Shown here: positions 19,048-56,166 of the stretch, in pieces | How positions within the stretch are numbered: the stretch's first letter is position 1 | Layout of the letters: every line of letters starts with the position of its first letter | Source: an uncultured Eubacteriales bacterium | GTDB lineage: Bacteria; Acidobacteriota; Aminicenantia; Aminicenantales; Saccharicenantaceae | Reading direction: 5' to 3' | DNA length: 64,000 nt | NCBI GenBank assembly: GCA_964523615.1 | Contig: CAZFZU010000006.1 | Location: 3,761 to 67,760 of the forward strand | Position numbers and translations under genes: made by a program | The notes under the pieces: generated by a model | Seen by the model: the letters and a program-made list of their open reading frames with translations, nothing else | What the model was told of the DNA's origin: nothing | The model's database searches: none

Positions 19048-19081
19048 AAAAAAAGGGAGAAAGGCGCGGGCCTTTCTCCCT
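19048..19081 (-). terminator. Rho-independent terminator of skp
   Basis: 12-bp stem AGGGAGAAAGGC/GCCTTTCTCCCT, 4-nt loop, T-tract on the minus strand. Confidence 0.9.
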
Positions 19082-19106
19082 TCGGAGCTCGTCAGGGGGG
19101 AGGGGA

Positions 19107-19655
19107 TTACTTCTTGACGGGGGGCGTCGCGGCCTTGGACTGGTCGTAGCGCCGGATGACCTCGTCGGTGATGTCGATCGTCGGGCTGGCCGTGACGACG
19201 CCGCTCGACATGGCGTCGAGGACGAGGTCGAGGCCGCGCTCCTTGGCCAGGTTCTCGATGACGACGACCATCTCGCCGCGGATCTTGTTGATGAGGTTGT
19301 TGGCGAAGGCCTGCCCGTCGCGGGTGGCGTCCTCTTCGTAGCGCTTGCGCTCGGTCGACTTCTTCTCGATGTCGGACTGGATGCCCGCCAGGGCCTCGTT
19401 GGTCATCGTCAGCCGTCCCGTCGAGAGCTTGTTCTCGAGCAGCCGGATGGCGTCGTCGAGCTTCTGGATGTCGTTCTTGATCTTGGTGTCGCGGTCCTGC
19501 ATCTGGGCCAGGGCCTTCTTGCCTTCGGCGCAGGTCTCGAACGCCTTCTGGGAGTTGATGATGGCCACCTTGCTCACCTGCTGGGCGTACGTCGCGCCGA
19601 CGACGGCCAGGACGAACAGGATGACGAGGGGGGCGAGAGTGCGGAATCTGTTCAT
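19107..19655 (-). CDS. skp: OmpH/Skp outer-membrane chaperone
   Basis: Signal peptide, KVAIINSQKAF, coiled coil, GLDLVLD, DITDEVI. Confidence 0.9.
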   Translation of the reverse strand: MNRFRTLAPLVILFVLAVVGATYAQQVSKVAIINSQKAFETCAEGKKALAQMQDRDTKIKNDIQKLDDAIRLLENKLSTGRLTMTNEALAGIQSDIEKKSTERKRYEEDATRDGQAFANNLINKIRGEMVVVIENLAKERGLDLVLDAMSSGVVTASPTIDITDEVIRRYDQSKAATPPVKK

Positions 19656-19716: not shown

Positions 19717-20838
19717 CTACCACGACGCGCCGATTTTTTTAAGGGTCTCGTCGATCCGGGCCAGGGCCGCCCGGAGATAGCCCGCTTCGGGACCGTAGCC
19801 GAAACGGAGGTAGCCGTCGAGCTCGAAGTGGTCCCCGGGGACGGCCAGGACGCTCTGTTCCCGGATGAGGCGCTCGACGAGCTCGGTCGAATTGACCTCC
19901 AGGCCGTAGCGGGCGAAGCAGATGGCCCCGGCCTTGGGCGGCCGGAAGGAGAACAGCCCGGCGTGGGCCCGGAGCCAGGCCTCCAGGACGGGGAAGTTGG
20001 CGTTGAGGATGCCCCGGGTCCGGGCCAGGATGCGTTCCCTGGCCGCCGGTTCCAGGGCGAGGGCGGCCAGCCGGTCGCTCAGGGCCGAGGGCGAGATGGT
20101 CGTGTAATCGTGGTAGGGCCAGGTGCGCTTGACGACGTCCTCGGGCCCGGCGATCCAGCCGATGCGCAGGCCCGGCAGGCCGTAGGCCTTGGACAGGCCG
20201 TTGACGACGAGCACGCGTTCGGCCAGGCCCCAGAAGCTCGGGGTGGTGACGCCGGAGAGCTCGGCCCCCCGGTAGACCTCGTCGGCCAGGATCCAGGCCC
20301 CGGCCTTCTCGGCCAGGCCGACGACGGCTTTCATGACCTCGGGCGTGAGGACCGAGCCGGTCGGGTTGTTGGGATTGGTCAGGACGATGAGCTTGGTCTT
20401 CGGGGTCACCAGCCGGGCCATCTCGTCGAGGTCGGGCTGCCAGTCGAGCTCCTCCCTCAGGGTGAAGGTCTTGACCTTGGCCCCGAAGGCCCGCATCAGG
20501 CCGCCCATCTGCATGTAATTGGGCAGCTCGAAGAGGACCTCGTCGCCGGGCTCGATGAGGCTCCACATGAGCAGGAAGTTGGCCTCCGAGGAGCCGGCCG
20601 TGGTCAGGATCTGCTCCAGGCCGGCGCCGGGGTAGAGCGCGGCGATGCGCTCGCGCAGGGGGACGGTGCCGTTCGTCTGGGTGTAGCCGAGCTCGACGCG
20701 CGTGAGCTCCTCGAGCTGGGCCGGGGTCAGGAGCTCCGCCAGGGTCATGGGGTGGACGCCGCTCTCGGACAGGTTGTAGTCGACGACGTTCTCCCAGACC
20801 GACTGCATCCGCTCCATCTTGAACAGGTCGATCTTCAT
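19717..20838 (-). CDS. PLP-dependent aminotransferase class I/II
   Basis: NPNNPTG, DEVY, NGLSKAYGLPGLRIGW; begins 22 nt after the DUF106-like gene. Confidence 0.92.
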   Translation of the reverse strand: MKIDLFKMERMQSVWENVVDYNLSESGVHPMTLAELLTPAQLEELTRVELGYTQTNGTVPLRERIAALYPGAGLEQILTTAGSSEANFLLMWSLIEPGDEVLFELPNYMQMGGLMRAFGAKVKTFTLREELDWQPDLDEMARLVTPKTKLIVLTNPNNPTGSVLTPEVMKAVVGLAEKAGAWILADEVYRGAELSGVTTPSFWGLAERVLVVNGLSKAYGLPGLRIGWIAGPEDVVKRTWPYHDYTTISPSALSDRLAALALEPAARERILARTRGILNANFPVLEAWLRAHAGLFSFRPPKAGAICFARYGLEVNSTELVERLIREQSVLAVPGDHFELDGYLRFGYGPEAGYLRAALARIDETLKKIGASW

Positions 20839-20860
20839 GGGCAGCCTCTCACGCGGGGAT

Positions 20861-21688
20861 TCAGATCTCGACCTTGAGGACGCCCTTCAGCGCGAAACCG
20901 AGGGCGATCGACAGGACGAGGTAGGCGACGAGCCAGTGGACGTTCGAACCGAGCACCGGAAGGCCGGCGGCCGGGTAGAGGACCTCGACGGAACGGATGG
21001 GTCCGCCTCCGGGCAGAGGGGGTTCGCCGGGGAAGAGGACGCGCTTCCCGAAGGAGCCCCGGGACGCCAGCGCGGAGATCCGGGCCAGCCGGTCCCCGCC
21101 GGCGACGACGGTCTTGCCGAAGGCCAGGGAGCCGGCCCGGACGACGAGGCGTCCCGACCCGGGCCCGACGGCCCGGACGCGCCAGACGGCTTCGCCCAGG
21201 TCGGCGACGCGGACGACGGGGGACGTGACCTCGATGAACCCGGGAGTCTCGAGGGCCAGGTCGAGCGAGGCGGGATCGACGCCCGGCTCGAAGCGGGCCT
21301 TGACCAGGGTCTCCCGCCCCGGCGAGAGCGGCGCCCGGTCGTACCAGACCGAGAGCTGGGCCAGGATGAGGACGAGCGGCACGATCATGACGGCCAGGGG
21401 CCGCAGGTTGGCGGCAAGATAGGCCAGGTTGGCCTTGAGCACGCCGGCCTGGGCCGACAGGGTCACCCGCATGTCGTCCTTGTACAACCGCATCTCCAGC
21501 AGGTGGGCCTTGATGCGGTCCTTGGCCCGGCGGATGGCGGCCTGGTTCGAGGTCAGCTTGTAGACCTCGAGCATGAGCAGGGCCGTCAGGAGCGAGACGG
21601 CGATCAGCCCGGCCCACGGGGACATCCCCCGGAAGGGCCAGAGGACCGCCCCGACGAGCCCGCCGAAGACGACGTTGACCGCGTGCAT
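20861..21688 (-). CDS. DUF106/EMC3/TMCO1-like (Oxa1-superfamily) three-TM membrane protein with inserted soluble domain
   Basis: ATG 21688 after GAGGA. TM1 (GLIAVSLLTALLML), basic coiled coil (NQAAIRRAKDRIKAHLL), TM2 beginning RPLAVMIVPLVLIL, beta-rich insert, terminal TM3 (WLVAYLVLSIALGFALK). Confidence 0.6.
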   Translation of the reverse strand: MHAVNVVFGGLVGAVLWPFRGMSPWAGLIAVSLLTALLMLEVYKLTSNQAAIRRAKDRIKAHLLEMRLYKDDMRVTLSAQAGVLKANLAYLAANLRPLAVMIVPLVLILAQLSVWYDRAPLSPGRETLVKARFEPGVDPASLDLALETPGFIEVTSPVVRVADLGEAVWRVRAVGPGSGRLVVRAGSLAFGKTVVAGGDRLARISALASRGSFGKRVLFPGEPPLPGGGPIRSVEVLYPAAGLPVLGSNVHWLVAYLVLSIALGFALKGVLKVEI

Positions 21689-21701
21689 ATGATCGATCCT
21701 C

Positions 21702-21784
21702 AACCTGGATTAGTCATGAAAACGCCGTGTTCCTCCATCACAACAGACGATCCAAGACCGGGAATCTCATGAATCGTCCAGGTT
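21702..21784. repeat. 18-bp imperfect inverted repeat spanning the intergenic gap
   Basis: AACCTGGATTAGTCATGA (21702-21719) and TCATGAATCGTCCAGGTT (21767-21784); 15/18 match, each arm containing TCATGA. Confidence 0.7.
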
Positions 21785-21974
21785 AGCCGATGTAGCCAAG
21801 CCCCTTGAGCTTCTTCTTGATCTCCTCTTCGGAGTCGGCCTCCTCGATCTTGGCCACTTCTTTCTCGAGGCAGTGGGCGACGAACTCCTCGACCGAGGAG
21901 TAGCCGGACATCTCGGCGTACTTCTTGATCTTGGCGAAGAGAGCCTTGTCGACGGCGACTTTCACGGTGGCCAT
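21783..21974 (-). CDS. 63-aa ribbon-helix-helix-like protein with C-terminal LKGLGYI tail
   Basis: AAGGAG RBS; VKVAV strand, two helices joined by GYSSVEEF; ends EEEIKKKLKGLGYIG. Confidence 0.85.
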   Translation of the reverse strand: MATVKVAVDKALFAKIKKYAEMSGYSSVEEFVAHCLEKEVAKIEEADSEEEIKKKLKGLGYIG

Positions 21975-21992
21975 GGCGATGCTCCTTGTCCG

Positions 21993-24008
21993 TCAGGTCT
22001 TGGCGAGAACGTCCCGGCCGATCATGCCGGCCGGCTTCTCGGCGTCGAAGAGGCTCAGCACGGAGGCCGTCAAGTCCTCCAGGGCCGGGGCCTCGGCCGT
22101 GAACTTCCTGTTCGCGAAGGCGATGCCCGGCAGGACGTCCGGGGCCGACATGTGGTCGCCGCTCCAGCGCTGGGTGTTGTCCTCGAGGACTTCGCGCGGG
22201 AAGCCGCCGAGCGGCGACTGCCAGGAGATGCGGTAGCCCGGGGCGAAGCCCAGGACGATGTCCGGGGCCTGCTCCAGGTTGGGGCCGCGGTAGGCCTCTT
22301 TGGCGACGAAGGCCCTGCGGACGACCTGATCGCCCGTGACGGGGTCCCGCAAGGCCTCGAGCCGGCGGACGATCTCCCGGACGAGATTGTCCTTGTCGGC
22401 TCCCGGCTCCACGGCGCCCTGGCCCTCGCGCCCGCGCTCGTTGATGTAGAGGCCGTTGAGGCCCATGCCGTAGGCCCGCGTCTTCGACCAGTCCGTGTTG
22501 TCGAAGTAGGCCGACTCCTCCTGCTTCCAGGGCCGTTTCAACCGGTGGAAACCCTCGCGGACGAGCCAGGTGTTGAGGTTGAAGCCGCGGCGGAAGGTGT
22601 TGAAGCCGTGGTCCGACATGACCAGGACGACCGTGTCCTTGTCGGCTTTTTTCAAGGCCAGGTCGAGGGCCCGGTCCATTTCGCCGTAGGTCCGGGCGAT
22701 GACGTCGCCGAAGCGGGCGGCCAGCTTTTCGTCGTAGGCCGGGTGGCCGGGATCGGTCAGGCGCCAGAACATGTGCTGGCGTTGGTCGGCGTTGGAAAAG
22801 TAGTAGAACAGCAGCCCCGCGTCGAGGCGGCCGAGCTCGTATTCGAGCATGGCCATGCTCTCCTCGTAGACGAGGTTGTCGAGATGGAGGAACTCCTCCT
22901 CGTCGAGAACGCCGTTCTCCAGGGCGCTCGTGTCGGCCGGCAGCCCCTTGGTGAAATAGGGGCCGAAGCGCCTCTCGAGGTCCCGGGCGTAGGACTCCGG
23001 CGTGGACAGGGGCAGGGCCGGGCGGGCCGGGTCCATGTGGATGGGCGAGACGTAGAGCTTGAACTTGGGCCGGACCTCCTTGAGGTAGAACAGGCAGATG
23101 CCGTGGACGCTCTGGGTCGGCATGAGCCCGAAGCGGACCCTCTGCCAGCCGCTCCACTCGCCCTGGCGGAGGACGAACTCGCGGCCCTGGAGGACGATCT
23201 TGGCCGCGGCGTGCTCGGGGTCGAGGAAGACCTGGAAGGGCACGGACGCCTCCGGGGAGCCGACCTTGAAGGCGTTCGTCGGGCCCTTGAGCTCGGCCTC
23301 GACCCGGTCGCCGACGACGAAGACGTCGTAGACCCGGCCGCCGCCGCCGGCCTCCTGGACGACGGACGCCGAGGCGTTCGTGTAATAGCTGAAGATGCCG
23401 TACGAGCCCTTGAGGTCGGGCGTGTTCATGCCGGCGAGCGTCCGCTGCTCCGACTCGACGGGCGGGTAGTTCGAGGGCATCTTGAAGACGGTCGCCGGGA
23501 CGCCGCGGTCCTCGAGGACCTGCCAGAAGGCCCGGCCCTTGCGGAGGTTCCGGACCTGGCCGCCCGAGAGGGGGATGAGCGTCTTGCCGAGGCGGATGGT
23601 CTTCCCGCCGCCGGTCGTCTCGGTGGCCGAGAAGACGGGGACGTAGGTCTTGGGATCGCGGTTGAAGAAATCGAAGATGGCGTGTCCGCCGGGGTCCATG
23701 CCGGTGATGAAGTTGGACCAGGCCACCGGCGTCTGGGGCGGCAGGCTGGTGCCGAGCGGCCGGAAGTCCCCGCCCCGCTCGAGGAGCCGCCGGAAGGCCG
23801 GCAGGCGGCCCTCGTCGATCCAGCGTTTCGTCAGGACGGGGTCGAGGCCGTCGAGACCGAGCACGATGACCTTCTTCCCGTCCCGGGACGGGCCGAACGA
23901 GCGGGGGGAGAGCCGGGCCGCTCCGCCCAGCCCCAGGGCCGCCGAGGCGGCCACGCCGGCCTTGAGGAATTCACGCCGCGAGAGCCGCGCGCGCCCGTGT
24001 CCGCTCAT
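21993..24008 (-). CDS. Alkaline phosphatase superfamily (COG3379-like phosphodiesterase) protein, Tat signal
   Basis: ATGA overlap at 24005-24008; SRREFLK; GLDG, PPQT(nucleophile)PVAW, DQRQH, SDHG, GDH. Confidence 0.9.
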   Translation of the reverse strand: MSGHGRARLSRREFLKAGVAASAALGLGGAARLSPRSFGPSRDGKKVIVLGLDGLDPVLTKRWIDEGRLPAFRRLLERGGDFRPLGTSLPPQTPVAWSNFITGMDPGGHAIFDFFNRDPKTYVPVFSATETTGGGKTIRLGKTLIPLSGGQVRNLRKGRAFWQVLEDRGVPATVFKMPSNYPPVESEQRTLAGMNTPDLKGSYGIFSYYTNASASVVQEAGGGGRVYDVFVVGDRVEAELKGPTNAFKVGSPEASVPFQVFLDPEHAAAKIVLQGREFVLRQGEWSGWQRVRFGLMPTQSVHGICLFYLKEVRPKFKLYVSPIHMDPARPALPLSTPESYARDLERRFGPYFTKGLPADTSALENGVLDEEEFLHLDNLVYEESMAMLEYELGRLDAGLLFYYFSNADQRQHMFWRLTDPGHPAYDEKLAARFGDVIARTYGEMDRALDLALKKADKDTVVLVMSDHGFNTFRRGFNLNTWLVREGFHRLKRPWKQEESAYFDNTDWSKTRAYGMGLNGLYINERGREGQGAVEPGADKDNLVREIVRRLEALRDPVTGDQVVRRAFVAKEAYRGPNLEQAPDIVLGFAPGYRISWQSPLGGFPREVLEDNTQRWSGDHMSAPDVLPGIAFANRKFTAEAPALEDLTASVLSLFDAEKPAGMIGRDVLAKT

Positions 24009-26131
24009 GCTTTCTTTCCCTTCGCTTCCCGCGAGAGGCCGGCGACGTCGACCAGGCCCCGGCCGTCCATATGGGCCGGCGGGGTCAGGCCGAAGAGCTC
24101 CAGGACGGTCGGGGCCAGGTCCATGATGGAGGGCTGGTCGGTCCTGAGGCGCAGGCTCGAGAACAGCACGCCCGGGACCAGGGCCGGGTCGATGCAGTGG
24201 TCGCCGCTCCAGGCCTTGACGTTGTCCTCGATGACCGTGTCGTCGACGATGCCCGTGACGCCGTCCCAGGAGGCCCGATATCCCTCGTTGTACCCGATGA
24301 TGAGGTCCGGGGCGTTGTCCCGGTACGGCCCGGCGTAGACGGCGTCGCGGTCGTAGACGCGGGTGACGGCCGGGGGGCCGCTCGGCCCGTCGCGCAGGGC
24401 CTCGAGCTTGCGGGCCAGCTCGGCCTTGAGGGCCGCGGCTTCGGCGCCGGGGGCGACGGTGCCGCGCGCCTCCCGGTCCCTGAGGTTGAGGTAGATGCCG
24501 CCGAGCCCCAGGCCGTAGGCCCGGGTCCGCCCCCAGTCGACGTCCTTGAACCATTCGCCGCTCGTCTCCCGTCCCTCGTTCAGGGCCAGGTAGCCGTTCT
24601 TCCGGAGCCAGGAGTTGAGGTTGACCCCCCGGCGGAAAGACTTGAAGCCATGGTCGGACATGACGAACAGGGCGTCGCGGGGGCCGAGCCCCTCGGCGAC
24701 CCGGCCGACGAGCCCGTCCATCTTCTTATAGAGATCCTCGACGACGGCCGCGCTCATCCGGGCCGGACCGGCCTTGAGGGCCGGATGGGCTTTGTCGAGG
24801 TAGCGGAAGAACATGTGCTGGACGCTGTCGGTCGTCTCGAAGACGATCGCGACCAGGCCCTTCGAAGTCTTGGCCAGGGCGTTGCGGAGCATGGCCTCCC
24901 AGGCCTCGTGGTTGTCGTAGGTCAGCTCGAGGAAGGCCTTCTCGTCGAGGGCGCCCTCGTTGAGGGCCCAGGTGTCGTTGGCCTCGCCCAGGGTGATGTA
25001 ACGGCCCAGGAGCTTGGCCAGGTAGACCGAGTAGATGAACGGATGGGAGATGGGCAGGGCGGGCTTCTCGGGGTCGATGTTGAGGGGCGTGACGTACATC
25101 TCGAACGGGGGCTCGAGCGAGGCGATGCGGAAGCGGCAGATGCCCCGGACCTTGACCCCCAGGCCGGCCCGGAAAACGACCGGCGTCCACGGGCTGAAGG
25201 TCTTCTCTTTGAGGAAGAACGGCTTCTCGCGGCCGACGGCGACGCGGGCCCCGCCGGCCGCCCGGTCGATGGCCACGGTCAGGGGGACGCGGATCTCCTC
25301 GGGGACCCTGAGCAGCGAGTTCTCCGGGCCCGCGAGCTCGGTCCGGATGACGTCGCCCTCGCGGCGGACCAGGACGGCCACGCCGCCCTCGTGCTTGCGG
25401 ACCTTCTCGGCGTCCTCGGTGAAGAAGGCGAACGTCCCCTGGCTGCCTTTGAGGTCGGGGGCGCACATGCCGGAGAGCAGGTGGCCCTTGAACTTCTCCG
25501 GCGGGAAGGTGATGGGCACGCGCAGGACCGTGGCCGGCACGCCCTTCTCGCCGAGGACCTTCCAGAACGGCACGCTCCGGCGCATCCCCCGGACCTCGGG
25601 CTTGGAGAGCGGGACGAGATACTTGCCCAGGGCCAAGGTCCGCTTGGGCCGGCCGATGCGGGCCGAGGACAGGTCCGGGAGATAGGTCCGGGGGTCGCGG
25701 CTGAGGAAGTCGAAGATGTTGTGCTTGGAGGGCTCCGAGCCGGTCATAAAGGACGACCAGGCGACGGGGGAGATGGCCGGGGTCGTCGTCCGCAGGCGGG
25801 CGTAGGCCCCGTCCTTGCGCAGTCGGGCCAGGTTCGGGAGCTTGCCCTCGGCCATGAACTTCTCGGCCAGCGTCGGTTCCAAGCCGTCGAGCCCGAGGAT
25901 GACGACGCGGTCGACCCGGCTGCGGCCGAGGGCCCGCCGGCCGCGGACCGTCCGCCACAGGAAGCGGAACGGCCAGGACAGGAACGAGAACAGGGCCAGG
26001 ACGAAGGTCAGGAAGAGGACCAGGAAGGAGGACAGGAAGGCGAAGCCGGCCCCAGGCCCGATGTAGCCGGCGAGAGGGGAGGCCAGGGCGAGGAGGGCGG
26101 CCGCCGCGAGGATCGTGCCCGTCCGCTTCAT
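24005..26131 (-). CDS. Alkaline phosphatase superfamily protein with signal peptide, YIGPG motif and TM anchor
   Basis: TGATG overlap at 26129-26133; MKRTGTILAAAALLALASPLAG-YIGPGAGFAF-TM-basic stretch; GLDG, PAISPVAW, DSVQH, SDHG, GDH. Confidence 0.9.
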   Translation of the reverse strand: MKRTGTILAAAALLALASPLAGYIGPGAGFAFLSSFLVLFLTFVLALFSFLSWPFRFLWRTVRGRRALGRSRVDRVVILGLDGLEPTLAEKFMAEGKLPNLARLRKDGAYARLRTTTPAISPVAWSSFMTGSEPSKHNIFDFLSRDPRTYLPDLSSARIGRPKRTLALGKYLVPLSKPEVRGMRRSVPFWKVLGEKGVPATVLRVPITFPPEKFKGHLLSGMCAPDLKGSQGTFAFFTEDAEKVRKHEGGVAVLVRREGDVIRTELAGPENSLLRVPEEIRVPLTVAIDRAAGGARVAVGREKPFFLKEKTFSPWTPVVFRAGLGVKVRGICRFRIASLEPPFEMYVTPLNIDPEKPALPISHPFIYSVYLAKLLGRYITLGEANDTWALNEGALDEKAFLELTYDNHEAWEAMLRNALAKTSKGLVAIVFETTDSVQHMFFRYLDKAHPALKAGPARMSAAVVEDLYKKMDGLVGRVAEGLGPRDALFVMSDHGFKSFRRGVNLNSWLRKNGYLALNEGRETSGEWFKDVDWGRTRAYGLGLGGIYLNLRDREARGTVAPGAEAAALKAELARKLEALRDGPSGPPAVTRVYDRDAVYAGPYRDNAPDLIIGYNEGYRASWDGVTGIVDDTVIEDNVKAWSGDHCIDPALVPGVLFSSLRLRTDQPSIMDLAPTVLELFGLTPPAHMDGRGLVDVAGLSREAKGKKA

Positions 26132-27423
26132 CAGTAGTTCTTGAGGATGATCGGGGCCAGGTCGGCGATGCGGAGGTCGTCGCCGTGGTCCTCGACCGAC
26201 CAGAAGAAGGCGTCGTCCCAGGTGTGCATGCCTTGGAGGCCGGAGCGGCCGAAGACCTCCTTCCGGCGGACCGAGCCCTTCATGTCGAAGCCGGGCTCGC
26301 CCACGACGACGAGGTCCGGGCCCTTGGCGGCGTGCGGACCGTGGTAGACCTCCTCGTTGAAGAAGACCTTCTTGACGACGCGCCGGCCCTCGTAGGTCAG
26401 CTGCTCGAGCTTGCCGGCGATCTCCTGGCGCAGGGCCCGGCGGGCGCTCCGCGCGATCGTGCCCTTGGGGAAGCGGTCCTTGAGGTGGATGTAGATCCGG
26501 TTGGGGTCGAGAGCGAAGGCCTTGGTCCGGCCGTGGATGTCGCCGAGCCCCGTCGGCTCGGGCTTGAGGAAACGGAGGTAGCCGTTCTGCTCGAGCCAAG
26601 CGTTGAGATAGACCTCCTGGACGATGCCCGTGAAGCCGTGGTCGGACAGGATGTAGAAACCGGCGTAGGTGTTGGTGAGCTTGTGGTAGGCGGCGACGAT
26701 CTTGCCGATGAGACGGTCGATGTGGCGGTAGAAGTCGAGAAAGCGCTCATGGGAGGGGTGGCCGGGGTCCTCGTAGGCGCGCCACAGGAAGTGGTGGAGA
26801 CGGTCGGTCCCCGTGACGACGTACTCGAAGTAGTCCCAGTCCCCTTCCCAGAAGTGGTTGAGGGCTTTTTGCCCCCCGGCCATGGTCTTGGTCAGCTCCT
26901 GCCAGAGGACCTCGGGGCTCTCGCGGCATTTGAGGATGTCGACGTCGATCTGGTAGCCCATCTGCTCGAGGGCGGCCCGGTAGGTCGTCGGCCAGACGGC
27001 CTTGGCCAGCTCCAGGGCCACGAAACCGGACACGAGGACGCCCTCGATCTCGCGGGCCGGGTAGGTCGAGGGCTGGTTGATGACGATGCTCCGGCGGCCC
27101 TTGGCGCCCAGGCGGTCCCAGAGGGTGGGGGCCTTGACGTCGAGGTAATTGGGGAAGCGGATGTCGTAGGATCGGGGCTTGAAGTCGGTGAAGCCGAAGA
27201 TCCCATGGCTGCCCGAGTCCGTCCCGGTCATGAAATCCGTCCAGGACACGGCCGAGATCTCGGGCAGGCTGGCCTTCATCCGGTGGAGCCGGCCGATGTC
27301 CATGAGGCGGGCCATGGTCGACATGATCCCCCGGCGGGCCAGCTCGGCGATCATGCCGTAGGGCACGCCGTCGAGGCCGATGACGCAGGCTTTTTCAGTC
27401 TTTTTTCGCTTCGCTACGGCCAT
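26131..27423 (-). CDS. Alkaline phosphatase superfamily protein, no export signal
   Basis: GLDG, PEISAVSW, DRLHH, SDHG, GMH; lacks the long central insert of the two paralogs. Confidence 0.9.
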   Translation of the reverse strand: MAVAKRKKTEKACVIGLDGVPYGMIAELARRGIMSTMARLMDIGRLHRMKASLPEISAVSWTDFMTGTDSGSHGIFGFTDFKPRSYDIRFPNYLDVKAPTLWDRLGAKGRRSIVINQPSTYPAREIEGVLVSGFVALELAKAVWPTTYRAALEQMGYQIDVDILKCRESPEVLWQELTKTMAGGQKALNHFWEGDWDYFEYVVTGTDRLHHFLWRAYEDPGHPSHERFLDFYRHIDRLIGKIVAAYHKLTNTYAGFYILSDHGFTGIVQEVYLNAWLEQNGYLRFLKPEPTGLGDIHGRTKAFALDPNRIYIHLKDRFPKGTIARSARRALRQEIAGKLEQLTYEGRRVVKKVFFNEEVYHGPHAAKGPDLVVVGEPGFDMKGSVRRKEVFGRSGLQGMHTWDDAFFWSVEDHGDDLRIADLAPIILKNY

Positions 27424-27453
27424 GGCGCGGCTTCTTCCGGCTTGGAAATCAGG

Positions 27454-27482
27454 ATTTTACCTCAATCCGGCCGTCCGGTCAA
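27454..27482 (-). promoter_or_regulatory. Promoter of the AlkP operon
   Basis: TTGACC-17 nt-TAAAAT. Confidence 0.75.
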
Positions 27483-27545
27483 CCGGTCCGGGTTGACTTT
27501 GCCGGGGCGGAGGGATTAAATGGGGGCTTCGAAAAGAGAGGCGAC

Positions 27546-28946
27546 ATGACAGGCAGGGACAGACTCCGCGACCGGTTGGTCCGGGAATACCGCAAGAAGA
27601 CGGCCCGCAGCCGGACGGTCTACCGCCGGGCCCAGAAGGTCATGATCGAGGGCGGCAGCCATTCCATCCGGCTCTGGCGCCCGTACCCGTTCTTCGCGGC
27701 CGGGGCCGAGGGGCCCTTCGTCCGCGACGTCGACGGCAACACCTACATCGACTACTGGCAGGGGCACTACGCCAACATCCTGGGCCACAATCCCGGCTTC
27801 GTCCGGCGGGGCATGGCCGCGAGCGTCGGCCGGGGCGCCCTCCACACGGGCTTCGAGGCCGGCCACCAGATCGAGCTGGCCGAGGCCCTCGTCCGGGCCG
27901 TCGGCGGCGGCGAGGGCAAGGTCCGCTTCACGACCTCCGGCACCCTGGCCACGATGTACGCCGTCATGCTGGCCCAGGGGCTGACCGGCCGCGACCTCGT
28001 GCTCAAGGTCGGCGGCGGCTGGCACGGGGCCTCGCCCTACCTTCTTAAAGGCGTCAAGTACCATCCGGGCTCGGGCTTCGAGGGCCCCGAATCGGCCGGC
28101 CTGCTCGACGACATCGTCCGGCGGACCCTGGTCACCCGGTTCGACGACGGCGACGACCTGGCCAGGATCATGGCCGCCCACGGCGACCGCATCGCCTGTT
28201 TCATCGTCGAGCCCTTCCTCGGGGTCGGCGGCTTCCTGGCGGCCTCCCGCGAATACCTGGCCCTGGCCCGCGAGCTGACGGCCCGCCACGGGGTCCTGCT
28301 CGTCTTCGACGAGATCATCTCCGGCTTCCGATTCGCCCCGGCCGGCGTCCAGACCCTCTACGGGATCCGGCCCGATCTGTCGACCTTCGGCAAGATCATC
28401 GGCGGCGGCCACGCCGTGGCCGCGGTCGTCGGACCGGCCCGGACGATGGAGGCCTGCGAGCGCGACCTCGGCGGCCGCGGCCGGGTCATGTTCGAAGGCG
28501 GCACCTTCTCGTCCCACTCCGAATACATGCGGGCCGGGTTGCTCATGCTCGGCCGCCTGGCCGCCCGGGCCGCGACGGTCTACCCGAAGCTGGCCCGCGC
28601 GGGCGAGACCCTGCGGCGGGGCATCGAGGAGGCCTTCGCCGCCGCCGGCCTGAGGGCCCGCTGCACGGGCGGCGGCAACGACGTCGTCCGCGGCAGCTCG
28701 ATGTTCATGGTCCATTTCCCGAAAGGGGAGGAAGGGCGCGTCGACCGGCCCGAGACCCTCCAGGACGCCGGGCGCATGGACCTCGCCCTGCGGGAGGACC
28801 TGCTCAAGCTGGCCCTGCTCGTCAACGGCGTCAACGTCGTCCACGGCGGCGGGGCGGTCTCCGCGGCCCACGGCCCGAAGGAGATCGCGGCGACCTTGGC
28901 CGCCTACGGCGAGGCGGCCCGGCTGATCGCGGACCATGGGGATTGA
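27546..28946 (+). CDS. Aminotransferase class III (glutamate-1-semialdehyde aminomutase-like)
   Basis: DVDGNTYIDY, FTTSGT, WHG, FDEIISGFR, TFGKIIGGG. Confidence 0.85.
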   Translation: MTGRDRLRDRLVREYRKKTARSRTVYRRAQKVMIEGGSHSIRLWRPYPFFAAGAEGPFVRDVDGNTYIDYWQGHYANILGHNPGFVRRGMAASVGRGALHTGFEAGHQIELAEALVRAVGGGEGKVRFTTSGTLATMYAVMLAQGLTGRDLVLKVGGGWHGASPYLLKGVKYHPGSGFEGPESAGLLDDIVRRTLVTRFDDGDDLARIMAAHGDRIACFIVEPFLGVGGFLAASREYLALARELTARHGVLLVFDEIISGFRFAPAGVQTLYGIRPDLSTFGKIIGGGHAVAAVVGPARTMEACERDLGGRGRVMFEGGTFSSHSEYMRAGLLMLGRLAARAATVYPKLARAGETLRRGIEEAFAAAGLRARCTGGGNDVVRGSSMFMVHFPKGEEGRVDRPETLQDAGRMDLALREDLLKLALLVNGVNVVHGGGAVSAAHGPKEIAATLAAYGEAARLIADHGD

Positions 28947-28964: not shown

Positions 28965-31670
28965 CTATCCGCCGGTCACCGCGGTGAAAGCGTAGGCGCC
29001 GCTCTCGACCTCGAAGACGACGCTGCCGCCGTCGTCCCCGGCCGGCGAGACGCCGGGCACGCGGACGACCTCGTGGCCGGCCCGCCAGACCGTTTTCCCC
29101 GATTCGAGGACCCGGGCCCCCGGGCCCGGCAGGGGGACGTGGACCTCGGCCGTCGCCCCGGCGGGGATCCCGATCTCGAGAGCGAACGTCCCATCCGCCC
29201 TTCTCCAGGACGAGGAGACCTGGCCCGAGACGGTCTCGAGCCTGGCTTCGACGAACGTCAAGTCACCGAGGGGACGCGGCCGGACCCGGACCCTGGTCCA
29301 ACCCGGCAGGGCGGGGGACAGGCCGGCCAGGACGCGGTAGAACCAGGCGTCGATGCTGCCTAGCATGATGTGGTTCTGAGAGTTCATGGCGTGGCCGCCG
29401 AGCTTCTCCCAGCGCTCCCAGAGGGTCGTCGCGTCCTCGGCGACCATGTAGCCCCAACCCGGATAGCTTTTCCGGGTCGCCACCCGGAAGGCCGTCTCGC
29501 CGCGGCCGGCCTCGGTCAGGACGTCGAGCAGGTAGCGCGTGCCGAGGATGCCGGTGTCGAGGTGGAAATCCTGGAGGACCTCGACGCTGCGGAGCAGGGA
29601 GGCCAGGACCTTGTCCTTGCGGTCGGCGGGCACCATGTCGAGATAGAGGGGCAGGAGGTTGGCGGTCTGGTTGGGGTGGTTGTCGACCGGGCTGACCCGG
29701 ACCGCGGCGTATTGCGAGTCGCCGAGGTAGGTGTCGTTGAAAGCCGTCTTGACGGATTCGGCGAGCCGTTCGAACTCGCGGACCTCGTCCTCCCGGCCCA
29801 GGACGCCCGCCAGCCGGGCCATGACGAGGACGTCGTGGTAATAATACCAGGTCGAGGTCAGGTCGACCGGGGTCTTCTTGGGGACGACGCTCCCGGGCGG
29901 GCACCAGTCGCCGTACTTGCCCAGGGTCCGGACGATGCGGCGGTCCGTGTGGCGGCCGAGAAAGCCGACGTACCTCTTCAGGGCGGCGTAATGGGCCTCG
30001 ACGAAGCGGCGGTCTCCCGTGTGCCGCCAGAGGAGGTCGACGAGCGTGGCGTAGGCGGACGACCAGGCCGGGTCGGCCGGATAGAGCCGGGGGAGATAGG
30101 GCGGCACGACGTCGGGCAGGCTGCCGTCCTCCTTCTGGGCCAGGCGGATGTCGTCCAGGTACTTGGCGTAGAAGGCCGTCATGTCGAAATTGAAGACGGC
30201 CTCCTCGGCCGAGAGGTGGGCGTCGCCGAGCCAGCCGTGGCGCTCGTCGCGCTGGGGGCAGTCCGTGGGGATGCTCATGAGGTTCGAGAGCTGGCCGCGG
30301 ACGACGTTGTCGTGGATCCGCTCGATCAGGCCGTCGGAGCAGCGGAAACGGCCCGTCCGCCGGACGTCCGAGTGGACGAAGGCCGCCTCGAGGGCGTCCG
30401 GGCCGGGCGGGCCGGGGAAGCCCGTCATCTCGACGTAGCGGAAGCCGTGATAGGTGAACCGGGGCTCGAAGACCTCGGGCCCGCCGCCGCGGAGGACGTA
30501 GACGTCGGTGGCCTCGGCGTTCTCGTTCGGCCCGACGTTGAGCGTGCCGTCCTCGTGGAGGAGCTCGGCGTGGCGGAGGCGGACCTCGGCGCCCATCGGC
30601 CCCTCGACCTTCAACCGGACCCAGCCGGAGAAGTTCCGGCCGAAGTCGTAGATCAGGGCCCCGGAGGGCAAGCGTTCGACCGAACGCGGCCCGAAGCGTT
30701 CGACGACCCGGACGGGCGGCAGGGTCTGCGCGGCCAGGGGATAGCCGTCGACCTCGACGGCCTTGGCCCAGGCCCGGTCGTCGAAGCCCGGCCGGTCCCA
30801 GCCGTCGACGAGGATGCGGGCGTCGGTGCGCTCGCCGTAGTACAGGCCGTTCTCGGCCAGCGGCCCGGCGGAGGTCCTCCAGCTCTCGTCGGAAGCGACG
30901 ACGGACCGGGCCCCGCTCTCGTACTCGATCTCGATGCGGCAGGCCAGGCGGGGCCCGCCGTAGCCGTAGGCCTGGGTGTGCCGGCCGTTGCCGAGGATGA
31001 CCCCGACGGCGTTCCGGCCCCGCACCAGGGCCGTGACGTCGTGGACGGCGTAAAGGGCCTTCTTGCGGTAGTCCGTCCAGCCGGGGTCGAGGACGCTCGT
31101 CCCGGCCTTCCCGCCGTTCAGGCGCAGCTCGTAGTGGCCGAGCCCGCAGATGAAGACCAGGGCCAGGGCCACCCGTTCCTCGCAACCGAACTCTTTGCGC
31201 AGGTACACGGCGTGGGCCTGGGCGTCGTCGGCGCCCTGGTGGCCGAGCAGGAGCGTGCCCTTGGAGCGGAATTCGCGGACCTCGCGGGCGGCGATCCAGC
31301 GCGCCTTCCACTCGCGGGGATCGAGGAAGCCGGTGACGAAAGCGGCCGGCCCGCTCCAAGGGCTGGGGCGCCCCTCGCGGTCCCACCAGCGGACCTTCCA
31401 ATGATAGCGGGAGCAGCTCTGAAGCGGCTCGCCTCCGTAGGGGAGCCCGGGCGGCCCGCCGGCGGCCGGCCGCTGGTCCGAATCCCAGAGATCGCCGATG
31501 TCGCCGCGCAGCAGCTCGGCCGAGGAGGCGACCAGGACCTGCCAGAAAGCCGGACGGTCGCCCCGGACGGGGCTTTCGACCGTCCACGTCAGGCGCGGCG
31601 ACGCGGCGTCGACGCCCAGGGGCTCTTCGAGGTACTCGCAGCGGAGGTTCGCGGGCGGGCGCGGGGTCAT
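28965..31670 (-). CDS. Alpha-L-rhamnosidase (GH78), no signal peptide
   Basis: NLRCEYL, DFGRNFSGW, PTDCPQRDERHGWLGDA, TTLWERW, SQNHIM. Confidence 0.92.
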   Translation of the reverse strand: MTPRPPANLRCEYLEEPLGVDAASPRLTWTVESPVRGDRPAFWQVLVASSAELLRGDIGDLWDSDQRPAAGGPPGLPYGGEPLQSCSRYHWKVRWWDREGRPSPWSGPAAFVTGFLDPREWKARWIAAREVREFRSKGTLLLGHQGADDAQAHAVYLRKEFGCEERVALALVFICGLGHYELRLNGGKAGTSVLDPGWTDYRKKALYAVHDVTALVRGRNAVGVILGNGRHTQAYGYGGPRLACRIEIEYESGARSVVASDESWRTSAGPLAENGLYYGERTDARILVDGWDRPGFDDRAWAKAVEVDGYPLAAQTLPPVRVVERFGPRSVERLPSGALIYDFGRNFSGWVRLKVEGPMGAEVRLRHAELLHEDGTLNVGPNENAEATDVYVLRGGGPEVFEPRFTYHGFRYVEMTGFPGPPGPDALEAAFVHSDVRRTGRFRCSDGLIERIHDNVVRGQLSNLMSIPTDCPQRDERHGWLGDAHLSAEEAVFNFDMTAFYAKYLDDIRLAQKEDGSLPDVVPPYLPRLYPADPAWSSAYATLVDLLWRHTGDRRFVEAHYAALKRYVGFLGRHTDRRIVRTLGKYGDWCPPGSVVPKKTPVDLTSTWYYYHDVLVMARLAGVLGREDEVREFERLAESVKTAFNDTYLGDSQYAAVRVSPVDNHPNQTANLLPLYLDMVPADRKDKVLASLLRSVEVLQDFHLDTGILGTRYLLDVLTEAGRGETAFRVATRKSYPGWGYMVAEDATTLWERWEKLGGHAMNSQNHIMLGSIDAWFYRVLAGLSPALPGWTRVRVRPRPLGDLTFVEARLETVSGQVSSSWRRADGTFALEIGIPAGATAEVHVPLPGPGARVLESGKTVWRAGHEVVRVPGVSPAGDDGGSVVFEVESGAYAFTAVTGG

Positions 31671-40427: not shown

Positions 40428-40487
40428 GCGCCCGTAGCTCAGTTGGATAGAGCGTCTGACTACGAATCAGCAGGTCGGGTGTTCGAG

Positions 40488-40501
<14 letters not shown>
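40428..40501 (+). tRNA. tRNA-Arg (ACG), no encoded CCA
   Basis: Acceptor GCGCCCG/CGGGCGC, D arm GCTC/GAGC, anticodon loop CT-ACG-AA, T arm GGGTG-TTCGAGT-CACCC; U27-C43 mismatch. Confidence 0.95.
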
Positions 40502-41882
<1,381 letters not shown>

Positions 41883-41911
41883 GAGGGGACTCCTTTGCGC
41901 GCCGGCGCCGG

Positions 41912-42601
41912 CTACCGGGGCGGCTCGGCCGGCCGTTCGACGAGCCAATGGCGGACGAACCGGTAGGGGATGTTGAGGGCCGGGACGCAGAGCAGGATGA
42001 CGATGACGATGTCCAGGCGGTTAGCGACGGCGAAGCCGAAGACGCCGAGGTAGACGAGGCCCCGGAAATCTCCGCTCGCCCCCGAGCCCGTCTGGACCTT
42101 CTTGTACTCGCGTTCGAGATAGTAGAGGACCATCTGGAGCATGTAGGCGGCCAGGCCGAACAGGCTCAGGAAATAGAAGCCCAGCCGGCCCGATTGGATG
42201 TAATAGCCGGTGACCATGGCCCCGAGGACGAAGAAATCGGTGATCCGGTCGAGATAGAGGTCGAGGTAGGCCCCGAACCGGGTGCACATGTCCCGCGACC
42301 GGGCCAGCATGCCGTCGGCCCCGTCGAACAGGGTGCCGGCGTAGATGAGCAGGCCCGCGGCGATGAAGCTCCGATGGGTGCCGCCGAGGAAGGCCGCGGC
42401 GCCGGCCAGGCTCAGGACGAAAGCCGCCACGGTCAGGTGGTTCGGACGGAGCTTCAGGCGCATGGCCGCCCGGACGATGAGGGCGGCGACGGGGCGGTTG
42501 ACGAGCCGGTCGGCTTGGACGATCCGGGGCAGACGGGCGGGCAGGGGCGGCTTGAGGGCCGCTTCCAGGTCGAAGGCGTTCTTGTCCTCGGACGTTTCCA
42601 T
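41912..42601 (-). CDS. CDP-alcohol phosphotransferase family protein
   Basis: PNHLT; DGADGMLAR.....RFGAYLDLYLD signature. Confidence 0.92.
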   Translation of the reverse strand: METSEDKNAFDLEAALKPPLPARLPRIVQADRLVNRPVAALIVRAAMRLKLRPNHLTVAAFVLSLAGAAAFLGGTHRSFIAAGLLIYAGTLFDGADGMLARSRDMCTRFGAYLDLYLDRITDFFVLGAMVTGYYIQSGRLGFYFLSLFGLAAYMLQMVLYYLEREYKKVQTGSGASGDFRGLVYLGVFGFAVANRLDIVIVILLCVPALNIPYRFVRHWLVERPAEPPR

Positions 42602-45272: not shown

Positions 45273-46801
45273 AGATCGGCGGGCGTTCGGTCCGCGAAGA
45301 CCGGGACACGACGGAGGTTTCGGCGATCGTCGACGGTTACCGCCTGTGGTACCGGGTGCCGCGATCGTACGCCGTCACCGATTCGGCCGATCCCTTCCTC
45401 GCGGCGGCCCTGTTCCCGGCCATGAGGCTGGGGCGGAAGATCGAGGTCGATCCGGCTCTGTCGGTGTCGCCGCGGCTGCTCGAGAACCTCCGCGCCCTTC
45501 AGGAGATCCATCACGTCTGGAATCCCCAGCTTCGGATCGTCCCCATCGAGGCCAGGACCGCGCCGGGCCGGGCCCTGCGCGACGGGGTCCTGTCCTTCTT
45601 CTCGGGCGGGGTCGACAGCTTGTACACGTTCCTGAAGCGCCAGGAAGAACTGACGCATCTCGTCCATATCCAGGGCTTCGATTTTTCCGCGGAGAGCGGG
45701 GACTCCGGGGCCTTGATCGCGGCGGACCTGACCGACCTGTCGCAGCTCGCCTTCAAGCTTCTGGCGCCGGCCAACGCGGTCCGGGCGTTCCTGAGATCCC
45801 GGCTGTCGCCGAAGACCCTGTCGGACTTGGCCGAATACCGGCGATCGGGGGAGGTCCCCGAGGGCCTGGAAGAGGCTCTGGCCGGGGACCTGAACAGGGT
45901 CCTGACGGAGGGGCCGATCTGGCAGGACCGGCGTTTCGCCGGGATCGCCCTCCGGCCGGAGACCCGGGAACTCCTGGCGGCGGGGCCGCCTCCCGAAGAC
46001 ACGGTCCGGCTCAACCGGCGACTTCTCGAAGACGCTTTTCCTCTGGAGATCTCGCGTCCGCGCGGCCGGTCCTTCGACATCGCCGTCGACCGGAACACCC
46101 GGTTCGTCGAGAACGCCGGGAAGACCCTGGTCCCGGTGGCGACGAATTATTTCTCCTTCGGCTACCGCTACAACTTGAGCCGGACCCTGACGCAGGGGAA
46201 TTCTTTGGCTTGCGTCGCCCTGCTCCTGGGATTCCCGCGCGTCTATATCCCGGGCGCCTATTCCTACGGCCAACTCATCCCCCTGGGGTCCCATCCGCTG
46301 ACGGACCCTCTCTGGTCGAACGGGAGCGTCGCGATCGTCCACGACGGGGCCGAGGTCCAACGGGTGGACAAGGTCGTCAAGATCGCCCGGAACAGGGATG
46401 CCCTGGCGAATCTGAGGGTCTGTTTCACCGATATGAACGTCAATTGCGGCCGGTGCTCCAAATGCCTGCGGACGATGATCCCGCTGGCCCTGCTCGACGC
46501 TCAGGCGCCCCCCTTTCCCCCCCTGCCTTCGCTCCGGAAGATCCGCCGGATGCGCCTGGCCAACGAGAACGAGCGGAAGTACTTCAAGGAGAATTTCGAC
46601 GCGTCTTTGGGCGCCGCGCGGCCGGAGCTCAGGCGCGCGCTGAGTTCCGTCCTCAGGCGGTACGAGCGGCGCCGGCTGCTCGAGGACATCGACGCCCAGC
46701 TGCTCGGCGGCTGGGTCAGGAAGGCCTACCGGCGGATCTTCGCGTCGGGCGAGCGACACGTCCGGATCGGCGCGACGCCGCCTGATGGCGGCACCCTATA
46801 G
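45269..46801 (+). CDS. PP-loop (adenine nucleotide alpha-hydrolase) protein with CGxCxKC motif and ~125-aa insertion
   Basis: ATGA overlap; FFSGGVDS; GSHP.TDPLWS; NCGRCSKCLRT. Confidence 0.7.
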   Translation: MKIGGRSVREDRDTTEVSAIVDGYRLWYRVPRSYAVTDSADPFLAAALFPAMRLGRKIEVDPALSVSPRLLENLRALQEIHHVWNPQLRIVPIEARTAPGRALRDGVLSFFSGGVDSLYTFLKRQEELTHLVHIQGFDFSAESGDSGALIAADLTDLSQLAFKLLAPANAVRAFLRSRLSPKTLSDLAEYRRSGEVPEGLEEALAGDLNRVLTEGPIWQDRRFAGIALRPETRELLAAGPPPEDTVRLNRRLLEDAFPLEISRPRGRSFDIAVDRNTRFVENAGKTLVPVATNYFSFGYRYNLSRTLTQGNSLACVALLLGFPRVYIPGAYSYGQLIPLGSHPLTDPLWSNGSVAIVHDGAEVQRVDKVVKIARNRDALANLRVCFTDMNVNCGRCSKCLRTMIPLALLDAQAPPFPPLPSLRKIRRMRLANENERKYFKENFDASLGAARPELRRALSSVLRRYERRRLLEDIDAQLLGGWVRKAYRRIFASGERHVRIGATPPDGGTL

Positions 46802-48037: not shown

Positions 48038-48201
48038 GCGGCTAGGGTATCCCTCGTCCGGAGGGGTGTCAAGGCTCCGGTCCGGTTTGACTCCGATCGT
48101 CCTGTTGGGGTATCATTCCGGCCGTAGAGAAACGGACCTTAACTGTCGGCGGACCTTGCGGTTAGGACGTCCGTCCGGAACCGATACAGGAAGCGGAGAC
48201 C

Positions 48202-49281: not shown

Positions 49282-49282
49282 G

Positions 49283-50392: not shown

Positions 50393-50396
50393 GACC

Positions 50397-54282: not shown

Positions 54283-54373
54283 GCGGTTCTCCTCCGTGCA
54301 GGTTCTGTGTGTCCCGGCGATCAGGCGCTTCCGGACAACGCGTCCATTCTGGCCCAGGTGAGCGGCTCGGGTA

Positions 54374-54389
54374 TCACCCTTTAGGGGGA
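54374..54389. promoter_or_regulatory. 16-bp imperfect palindrome TCACCCTTTAGGGGGA (candidate TF site, copy 3)
   Basis: 14/16 match to TCAYCCYTARGGRTGA; intergenic, upstream of the PKD/beta-helix gene; CAGAAT lies 22 nt downstream on the minus strand. Confidence 0.4.
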
Positions 54390-54457
54390 TTCCCGGGAGC
54401 ATAATCTCCGGAACGGACTAGCCATCCGAGGGGGACTCCAGACCGGGACCCACCGGC

Positions 54458-56164: not shown

Positions 56165-56166
56165 GG

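Follow-up and report, generated by a model that had tools for sequence, protein, structure and literature searches.

The 64-kb window analysed here (by the window we mean the whole stretch of contig CAZFZU010000006.1 under study) contains a run of six genes on the minus strand, g1 to g6, that includes one copy of a conserved five-component membrane module, found here in nameable lineages of Acidobacteriota. The conserved core consists of two large paralogous enzymes of the alkaline phosphatase (AlkP) superfamily (g2 and g3), a small protein that resembles ribbon-helix-helix (RHH) proteins and ends in an invariant tail with the residues LGY (g4), and a putative membrane protein of the Oxa1 superfamily (g5), usually accompanied by a small cytoplasmic AlkP-superfamily enzyme (g1 in the window). 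The module is spread over about 80 Aminicenantes species, Paludibaculum and many metagenomic lineages. The nearest relatives of the window, whose composition is 65-72% G+C, are all uncultured Candidatus Aminicenantes of the phylum Acidobacteriota; most of the related loci are metagenomic, and the assignment to Acidobacteriota rests only on the loci with names. We consider it likely that the products make up a functionally coupled membrane module. A literature search found no description of this gene combination, in agreement with an earlier note made from the letters of the window (hereafter the original prediction), which had proposed the operon as an undescribed system.

Three sets of loci were compared. 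The Aminicenantes set, 80 loci from GTDB species representatives, was found with a 10-sequence g5 alignment, and the window proteins were mapped on; for the distant loci we searched with an alignment of divergent g5 sequences and read each hit in context; and a scan of metagenome contigs was seeded on the g2 anchor motif only, followed by hidden Markov models for the other families, which gave 48 evaluable loci. Accessory genes were counted in 80 Aminicenantes, 41 metagenomic and 9 distant loci. The order g1-g2-g3-g4-g5 is kept in essentially every sufficiently long Aminicenantes locus, down to 40% identity in g5, and one genome with entirely different flanks (L001/L022; L numbers designate related loci) lacks g1 and has g2 to g6 intact. 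The scan that started from g2 recovered g5 in 42 and g4 in 41 of its 48 loci, on the same strand and in many orders. Permuted orders among the related loci include g2-g4-g5-g3, g3-g4-g5-g2-g1 and g2-g3-g5-g4-g4. Paludibaculum fermentans (order Bryobacterales) carries a 288-aa sulfatase-family protein, g2, g3, g4, g5 and a 700-aa sulfatase-family protein in that order, and some lineages have a sulfotransferase between or after the core genes. Recovery at this rate from a g2 seed rules out chance juxtaposition, as does the conservation of the set in well over 100 loci despite changed flanks and many orders. Nor does an anti-phage defence island fare better: the module has only superfamily membership in common with the AlkP-superfamily, PglZ-like defence proteins, and PADLOC returned no match, to PglZ, BREX or any other system, for any of the six proteins. 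We regard chance and defence alike as extremely improbable.

The original prediction had treated all six genes, three of them for AlkP enzymes, as one unit. In other genomes the genes are indeed found together, whether in this order or rearranged, and g2 to g5 hold as a conserved core. However, the pyridoxal phosphate (PLP) aminotransferase g6 is a lineage-specific accessory outside that core, an aminotransferase of its type being present in 69 of 80 Aminicenantes loci versus 5 of 41 metagenomic ones; in several Aminicenantes loci it is missing and OmpH or other genes directly follow g5, and in other lineages PAPS-synthesis genes, sulfotransferases or LtaS-like enzymes are found in its stead. 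The expectation of three AlkP enzymes likewise stood only in part. The two large paralogs are always paired, but the third enzyme varies, being either g1-like, in 0-2 copies, or a cytoplasmic sulfatase-family protein of ~287 aa, which takes the place of g1 in 5/9 distant and 10/41 metagenomic loci.

All three AlkP paralogs match PF01663 well above its cut-off of 23 bits (g1, E 2.4e-33, 116.6 bits; g2, 4e-36, 125.6; g3, 6e-29, 102.1), and their residues make them look catalytically competent. As originally predicted, they keep the metal ligands and a Ser/Thr nucleophile: the ligand columns (Asp; Asp/His; Asp-His; His) do not vary among the three window paralogs or among 26 orthologues of g2/g3 drawn from widely separated lineages, and the nucleophile column, which aligns to the Thr90 region of the Xanthomonas nucleotide pyrophosphatase/phosphodiesterase (NPP), is always Ser or Thr. 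In g1 the nucleophile is Ser and the metal ligands are kept. The formylglycine motif C/S-x-P-x-R is absent from g1-g3, the position reading P-x-x-S/T-x-V-x-W. Single-sequence searches of the PDB with g1 and g2 gave no match; a 26-sequence profile detects remote similarity to solved structures (E ~1e-7), the closest relatives being Xanthomonas NPP, PhnA and the ENPPs. PhnA was also the only match in NCBIfam, far below threshold. With these phosphodiesterases g1-g3 share the AlkP core, the bimetal ligands and the Ser/Thr nucleophile, but g2 and g3 are only remotely similar to them, carry a beta-rich insertion of ~230 aa that splits the PF01663 match, and form an obligate pair that would be split across the membrane. 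An AlphaFold2 model of g2, built on an alignment of the three window paralogs only (pLDDT 44), at most suggests that the insertion, ~234-351, is all-beta. By motif and model g1-g3 belong to a distant NPP-type AlkP subfamily without a solved structure; our search of the literature on COG3379, which g1 resembles, found no relevant description and no characterised member.

The two large paralogs are predicted to work on opposite sides of the membrane. The N-terminus of g2 comprises a hydrophobic segment, a near-invariant turn x-A-Y-I/V-G-P-G-A-G-F, a second helix and an Arg/Lys cluster; the anchor reads xAYIGPGAGFAFLSSF...WPFRF before the cluster and is almost invariant in 68 loci. The second hydrophobic helix, which ends in WPFRF, is strongly conserved, far more so than a plain anchor requires. 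The positive-inside rule, applied to the hairpin and the basic cluster, predicts that the catalytic domain stays on the cytoplasmic face, and because the -1/-3 residues before AYIGPGAG violate the signal peptidase I rule in many orthologues, the hairpin is probably uncleaved. The N-terminus of g3, LSRREFLKAGVAASAALGLGG, has the twin-arginine translocation (Tat) motif SRREFLK ahead of a hydrophobic stretch and fits the pattern S/T-R-R-x-F-L-K. Its Pfam TAT_signal score of 20.8 bits is just under the 22.7 cut-off, the RR motif is conserved in the Aminicenantes orthologues, and distant orthologues have a lipobox Cys, a Tat signal plus lipobox, or a Sec signal. We therefore predict that g3 is exported; g1, which is without a signal peptide, is predicted to be cytoplasmic and soluble.

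This division of the pair appears to be old and to have been maintained, since every distant locus keeps one g2-type enzyme with the AYIGPGAG hairpin and one signal-bearing g3-type enzyme. The two orthologue groups are distinct in every lineage examined, and in the distant loci each enzyme is 45-52% identical to the window's own type versus 35-40% to the other. We know of no described system with an obligate homologous AlkP-fold pair split across the cytoplasmic membrane. Two loci of a lower-GC lineage, L118 and L211, have a g2-g3 pair with the AYIGPGAG anchor, a different second helix and a Tat-type g3; no g4 or g5 was detectable within 6-8 kb downstream, and they are exceptions to the linkage. 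The g2 anchors are too variable overall to link a divergent anchor with loss of g5.

The window's g5 alone has no Pfam match. A profile of its 30-member family has a sole match in the PDB, the archaeal YidC-like protein MJ0480/Ylp1 of the DUF106 family (5c8j, E 8.2e-9, residues 8-124), which bears out its first description as Oxa1-like. The match covers the first transmembrane segment (TM1), the coiled coil and TM2; the last TM gives another, weak match. PF01956 (EMC3_TMCO1) matches 9 of the 30 members, at best with 1.4e-6, and many homologues are annotated as DUF106 by JGI. A confident AlphaFold2 model built on the family alignment (pLDDT 91.7) places helices at 24-46, 49-68, 73-116 and 252-268, and suggests an architecture of TM1, a long cytoplasmic helical hairpin or coiled coil running into TM2, a beta-sandwich of ~125 aa and TM3; basic residues are concentrated at 47-94. 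Foldseek relates the beta domain of the model to Ig-like folds (filamin repeats, S-layer SbsC) and gave no significant match for the helical core. This Ig-like domain is predicted to be inserted in the extracytoplasmic (periplasmic) loop. Length differences among the shorter g5 variants and the g2/g3 deletions are scattered and uninformative as to coupled deletions.

By its profile matches g5 belongs, as a bacterial protein, to the DUF106/Ylp1/EMC3 branch of the Oxa1 superfamily, and it may have the insertase activity of that family; it matches 2322 representative clusters at 50% identity (E<=1e-3). Like Ylp1/MJ0480, EMC3, TMCO1 and GET1, it is predicted to have a core of three TMs in which a cytoplasmic coiled coil separates TM1 from TM2. 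Unlike the described DUF106 members, it is bacterial and has the Ig-like domain of ~125 aa in its TM2-TM3 loop. Moreover, its gene is accompanied by those of particular enzymes and does not stand as that of a general housekeeping insertase, and its putative partner is a soluble protein with an RHH-like half and a tail, rather than a membrane subunit of the EMC6/GET2 type. DUF106 is treated in the literature as archaeal/eukaryotic (PMC5868721, PMC8887752), and our search for bacterial DUF106 found no relevant description.

One could suppose that g5, with g4 as a cytosolic cofactor, is simply a private insertase for the procoat-like hairpin of g2, that it leaves once the hairpin is in place, and that g1-g3 are ordinary hydrolases by which phosphate, or sulfate, is scavenged from organic esters both within the cell and outside it. 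Two hydrophobic segments joined by a very short loop are the classic client type of YidC/Oxa1 insertases, and g2 starts in just this way, much like the YidC-dependent hairpin of M13 procoat, with a gene of the Oxa1 superfamily nearby; it differs from procoat in that its hairpin is probably uncleaved. The membership of g5 in the superfamily, the fact that the closest solved relatives of g2 and g3 are hydrolases (Xanthomonas NPP, PhnA, ENPPs), and the predicted export of g3, which many scavenging phosphatases share, all fit such an arrangement. However, it would leave unexplained the conserved periplasmic Ig-like domain of g5, the obligate pairing of g2 and g3 since an ancient duplication, the invariant tail that g4 has in common with adenosine 5'-phosphosulfate (APS) kinase and sulfatase-family partners, and the genes for 3'-phosphoadenosine 5'-phosphosulfate (PAPS) synthesis and sulfotransferases embedded in some loci. 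Moreover, g4 carries many charges and lacks a hydrophobic groove in which a transmembrane client could sit. To our knowledge there is no precedent for a private insertase that serves a single client, and we think this account unlikely.

The small protein g4 has three parts: an RHH-like N-terminal half (residues 4-42, strand-helix-helix), an acidic linker and a C-terminal tail, L-K-G-L-G-Y-I-G in the window and L-x-G-L-G-Y-[IL]-x(0-1) in the family. The invariant columns are A20, G24, Y25, E30, F31, H34, E39, L56, G58, L59, G60 and Y61. The tail positions L56, G58, L59, G60 and Y61 stay invariant across lineages in which g5 identity is 26-35%, whereas the presumed DNA-reading beta-strand is the least conserved part. 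Wherever both were detected, g4 adjoins g5, often with an overlap of 4 nt. In L090 (9810-10594) a g4 homologue and a shortened g5 (197 aa, with a reduced beta domain) overlap by 4 nt, and no AlkP gene lies within 10 kb; because the pair stands alone there, it is the minimal kernel of the module, and g4-g5 is also its tightest link. The small tailed protein is tandemly duplicated and placed after g5 in L116 and L143, which have the order g2(-g3)-g5-g4-g4.

Could g4 be a plain RHH transcriptional autoregulator, with no physical role in a membrane complex? Its residues 4-42, including the NikR-like turn G-Y-S-S-x-x-E, resemble the RHH proteins of the CopG/Arc/MetJ/NikR group, its size and position are typical of small regulators, and some sources label its homologues CopG/Arc/MetJ regulators. 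RHH_1 matches 5 of 14 family members (best 1e-4), but the window g4 only below threshold (E 0.0058, 17 bits versus a 20.5 cut-off), and the match to the RHH domain of NikR is weak and non-significant (E 0.3). The acidic linker and the invariant tail, which is also found on enzymes that are not regulators, set it apart from these regulators. Moreover, the pattern of conservation, weakest in the strand that would read DNA and strongest in the tail, is not what autoregulation would lead one to expect; g4 is tied to g5, alone with it in L090, and not to the promoter-proximal end; and a comparison of relatives revealed no conserved operator or repeat 5' of g1 besides two divergent -35 boxes. A purely regulatory g4 is, in our view, rather unlikely. 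Regulator and docking roles are compatible, and a membrane-sequestered regulator is possible.

The tail is not confined to g4. In the wider form of an acidic stretch followed by [IV]-x-x-L-[KR]-x-L-G-Y-[ILVM] and 0-1 residue at the C-terminus, it is present on two APS kinases (Pfam APS_kinase, E 5e-63 and 7e-60), on several proteins of the sulfatase family, some of them multi-TM and LtaS-like, others lipoproteins whose nucleophile motif is of the Thr type, and on lipoproteins resembling tetratricopeptide repeat (TPR) proteins and a second RHH protein near the module. Within the window only g4 has it, and none of the COG3379-type enzymes in the loci examined does. Two open reading frames that resemble CysD, subunit 2 of sulfate adenylyltransferase, by eye and with phmmer (L083, 1693-2493; L118, 5475-6326 on the minus strand, in reverse-strand coordinates) have the ending ...QKLRSLGYM, similar to the tail. 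We found no description of the LGY motif in the literature; to all appearance it is a short linear motif for docking or modification that has not been described before.

Sulfate-activation or sulfotransferase genes lie on the same strand within 8 kb of the module in 8/41 metagenomic, 2/9 distant and 1/80 Aminicenantes loci. The clearest case, L137, has the order RHH-LGY, ATP sulfurylase, g1-like, APS kinase-LGY, g1-like, g2, g3, g4, g5. ATP sulfurylase and APS kinase are both inside the operon in L137, L098 and L203, and APS kinase also in L156; sulfotransferases occur in L088, L089, L119, L121, L149 and L191; and genes of the cysD/cysNC type adjoin the module in L083 and L085 and are also close in Paludibaculum. 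Frequent neighbours, too, are LtaS-like sulfatase-family proteins with the nucleophile motif W-T-x-P-S-H, which is of the Thr type seen in LtaS and EptA.

Such neighbours invite the proposal that the AlkP enzymes serve PAPS-dependent envelope sulfation, as phosphoesterases for 3'-phosphoadenosine 5'-phosphate or for PAPS/APS inside and in sulfo-ester processing outside, and that the Aminicenantes have lost or relocated their PAPS genes. NPP-type enzymes cleave nucleotide phosphoanhydride and phosphosulfate-type bonds, PAPS-type genes sit inside three of the operons just named, sulfotransferases are found at other loci, and the LGY tail is fused to APS kinase itself. However, genes of this kind are within 8 kb in ~20% of the non-Aminicenantes loci and in a single one of the 80 from Aminicenantes, none is found within the 64-kb window, and g1-g3 are without a formylglycine motif. 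We judge a dedicated role in sulfation unlikely.

The aminotransferase g6 matches PF00155 (E 5e-47, 161 bits) and has the Schiff-base Lys motif SKAYGLPGLRIGW. Its closest models, PRK07324, GntC and VioD, all score under their equivalog cut-offs (NF005593, 315 bits versus 476). Phosphonate catabolism, with a PhnA and an aminotransferase, was considered for the operon and rejected, as the PhnA matches are far below threshold and the aminotransferase is not conserved with the core; it is further weakened by the best models for g6, which are class I/II aminotransferases and not 2-aminoethylphosphonate transaminase.

The explanation we prefer is a stable complex of the products that spans the membrane, with g5 as its base. 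In this proposal g5 would serve as a platform in the membrane, where it would insert the g2 hairpin or keep it in place, its periplasmic Ig-like domain contacting g3 and its cytoplasmic coiled coil binding g4. The substrate would be a phospho- or sulfo-ester embedded in the membrane, either a lipid or a lipid-linked head group, on which g2 would act first, in the inner leaflet, and g3 second, in the outer. The Oxa1-type groove of g5 could provide the crossing path for an amphipathic intermediate, since insertases in general, those of the Oxa1 superfamily among them, have been reported to scramble lipids (PMC11047089). Synthesis or modification of the head group would fall to the variable neighbours, the aminotransferase in the window and ATP sulfurylase, APS kinase, sulfotransferase or LtaS-like enzymes elsewhere, and the LGY tail would be the docking peptide that recruits such partners, together with g4, to the complex. 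Because the AlkP paralogs are never tailed themselves, they are the probable receptors; because tails are found on both cytoplasmic and exported partners, a surface common to g2 and g3, for example their insertion, would be the simplest one. By analogy, LtaS, EptA/MCR, OpgB/MdoB and BcsG may work in a similar way, as membrane-tethered extracytoplasmic enzymes of the AlkP fold with a Ser/Thr nucleophile and lipid head-group donors. Those enzymes, however, are of the sulfatase branch, have a multi-TM domain of their own and are one-sided, whereas the module has NPP-type enzymes, predicted to lie one on each side, and a separate Oxa1-type membrane protein.

We put the probability of this explanation as a whole at about 0.42, a compromise between our figures for the module and for the mechanism; the specific trans-membrane mechanism, taken by itself, is tentative and may well be wrong. 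Several observations weigh against it. Six of the 48 loci found through the g2 anchor have no detectable g5 nearby. The topologies of g2 and g3 are predictions from sequence. The window's own operon is without a sulfation gene, so that its substrate could be of either class, a phospho- or a sulfo-ester. A single receptor for tails on cytoplasmic proteins (APS kinase, g4) and on exported ones (lipoprotein sulfatases) would have to be able to bind through both g2 and g3. Finally, g4 possesses what appears to be a DNA-binding fold and may be a mere regulator. A more far-reaching version, with a bacterial EMC3/Ylp1-type Oxa1 protein as the core of a two-sided machine, whose NPP-like paralogs on the two faces pass a lipid-linked phospho- or sulfo-ester head group across by way of the insertase-type groove, is a long shot, and equally so its corollary that the LGY tail is a modular docking code by which enzymes of PAPS synthesis, transferases of the LtaS type and an RHH protein, as adaptor or regulator, are plugged in. 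The phosphoester transfer complex with its own assembly factor of the original prediction stays an inference; the opposite sides predicted for g2 and g3, the close pairing of g4 with g5 as the kernel and the repeated association with PAPS/sulfation genes and LGY tails go beyond that prediction. We rate the architecture of the system as new and each of its folds as known.

In its layout the operon is as first described, with one promoter, six same-strand genes, a TGATG overlap of g1 and g2, an ATGA overlap of g2 and g3, and then gaps of 18, 94 and 22 nt (Table 1). Sites of the TTGACC-17-TAAAAT type number 2 in 9.1 kb versus 0.4 expected, and a TTGAC/TATAAT-type promoter directly 5' of g1 is also present in many related loci. 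We placed the start of g5 at the ATG at 21688, and not at the TTG at 21703, because its homologues are 275 aa long. The OmpH/Skp gene follows g6 in most Aminicenantes loci, though not in L001/L022 or the distant loci, and the transcript may comprise seven genes, since the sole strong terminator sits after it. An inverted repeat, GTCAACC...GGTTGAC, overlaps the -35 box of the g1 operon and is best read as the back-to-back -35 hexamers of divergent promoters, one for the g1 operon and one for a class-III aminotransferase gene; among relatives its halves are ~6 to 40 nt apart. This aminotransferase gene and a GH78 alpha-L-rhamnosidase gene flank the operon in most Aminicenantes relatives and are lost where the flanks differ (L001), so we count them as neighbours and not as parts. 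An Rfam scan of the window found no regulatory RNA, its sole match being a distant tRNA.

Table 1. Positions of the features discussed, in window coordinates or in the coordinates of the related locus named.
Feature	Sequence	Position	Strand	Basis or remark
Sigma-70-type promoter-like site TTGACC-17-TAAAAT	window	27454..27482	-	~30 nt 5' of g1 ATG
g1, NPP/AlkP-type enzyme, COG3379-like, 430 aa	window	26131..27423	-	PF01663
g2, NPP-type enzyme with N-terminal hydrophobic hairpin, 708 aa	window	24005..26131	-	PF01663
g3, paralog of g2 with putative twin-arginine signal, 671 aa	window	21993..24008	-	PF01663
g4, RHH-like protein with C-terminal LGY tail, 63 aa	window	21783..21974	-	sub-threshold RHH_1
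g4-g5 spacer, mostly ~88-nt insertion	window	21689..21782	-	comparison with relatives
g5, DUF106/Ylp1-type Oxa1-superfamily membrane protein, 275 aa	window	20861..21688	-	family profile
g6, class I/II PLP aminotransferase, 373 aa	window	19717..20838	-	PF00155
OmpH/Skp-like periplasmic chaperone gene, neighbour outside core	window	19107..19655	-	PF03938, E 1e-23
First strong intrinsic-terminator-like hairpin (14-bp stem + T run)	window	19052..19083	-	3' of OmpH/Skp gene
Intergenic region 5' of g1, with inverted repeat GTCAACC...GGTTGAC	window	27483-27545		repeat overlaps -35 box of g1 operon
Class-III aminotransferase gene	window	27546-28946	+	flank
GH78 alpha-L-rhamnosidase gene	window	28965-31670	-	flank
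tRNA-Arg	window	40428-40502		
myo-Inositol-1-phosphate synthase and CDP-alcohol phosphatidyltransferase genes	window	40491-42601	-	overlapping genes
Polysaccharide or teichuronopeptide-like biosynthesis cluster	window	~46800-63400		
LGY-tailed protein	L137	3231-3980		
LGY-tailed protein	L165	1596-2501		
LGY-tailed protein	L085	10827-12929		
LGY-tailed protein	L083	11548-12894		
LGY-tailed protein	L089	4782-5267	minus	
LGY-tailed proteins	L149, L134, L098, L116, L174			

The spacer between g4 and g5 is made up mostly of an insertion of ~88 nt with terminal inverted repeats AACCTGGA...TCCAGGTT, which can be folded to a long hairpin (-31.9 kcal/mol, z -1.65). In the closest relatives, L005-L007, the insertion is missing and the spacer is only 6 nt long; neither the window nor 2.4 Mb of related loci contains another copy. 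The insertion could be an element of the miniature inverted-repeat transposable kind or an acquired intercistronic stem-loop.

Two further regions of the window may be mentioned. Beside a tRNA-Arg gene lie overlapping genes for a myo-inositol-1-phosphate synthase and a CDP-alcohol phosphatidyltransferase, a pair that suggests synthesis of inositol phospholipids, which are uncommon in bacteria. The polysaccharide or teichuronopeptide-like biosynthesis cluster has three sugar-associated ATP-grasp genes (one ATPgrasp_ST, two TupA-like), an epimerase, a GFO/IDH oxidoreductase, a GT1 glycosyltransferase, a Polysacc_synt_3 flippase and a 955-aa PKD-repeat protein.

The paired enzymes across the membrane hint at a new processing of membrane-bound phospho- or sulfo-esters, possibly at envelope sulfation beyond the cytoplasm, and a two-sided machine, if there is one, could for example add sulfate or phospho-groups to the envelope at a site beyond the cytoplasm. 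The tail, which an RHH protein has in common with APS kinases, sulfatase-family enzymes and TPR lipoproteins, has the look of a docking or modification motif that has gone unrecognised. Paludibaculum fermentans is a described species with the module, which makes the system more approachable experimentally. Even if g1-g3 were only scavenging phosphatases and g5 a private insertase, this would still be a new role for DUF106. The module ties a large bacterial DUF106 branch, the 2322 clusters matched by g5, to defined partners, and it would offer a simple bacterial model for client recognition or lipid movement of the EMC3/GET1 type.

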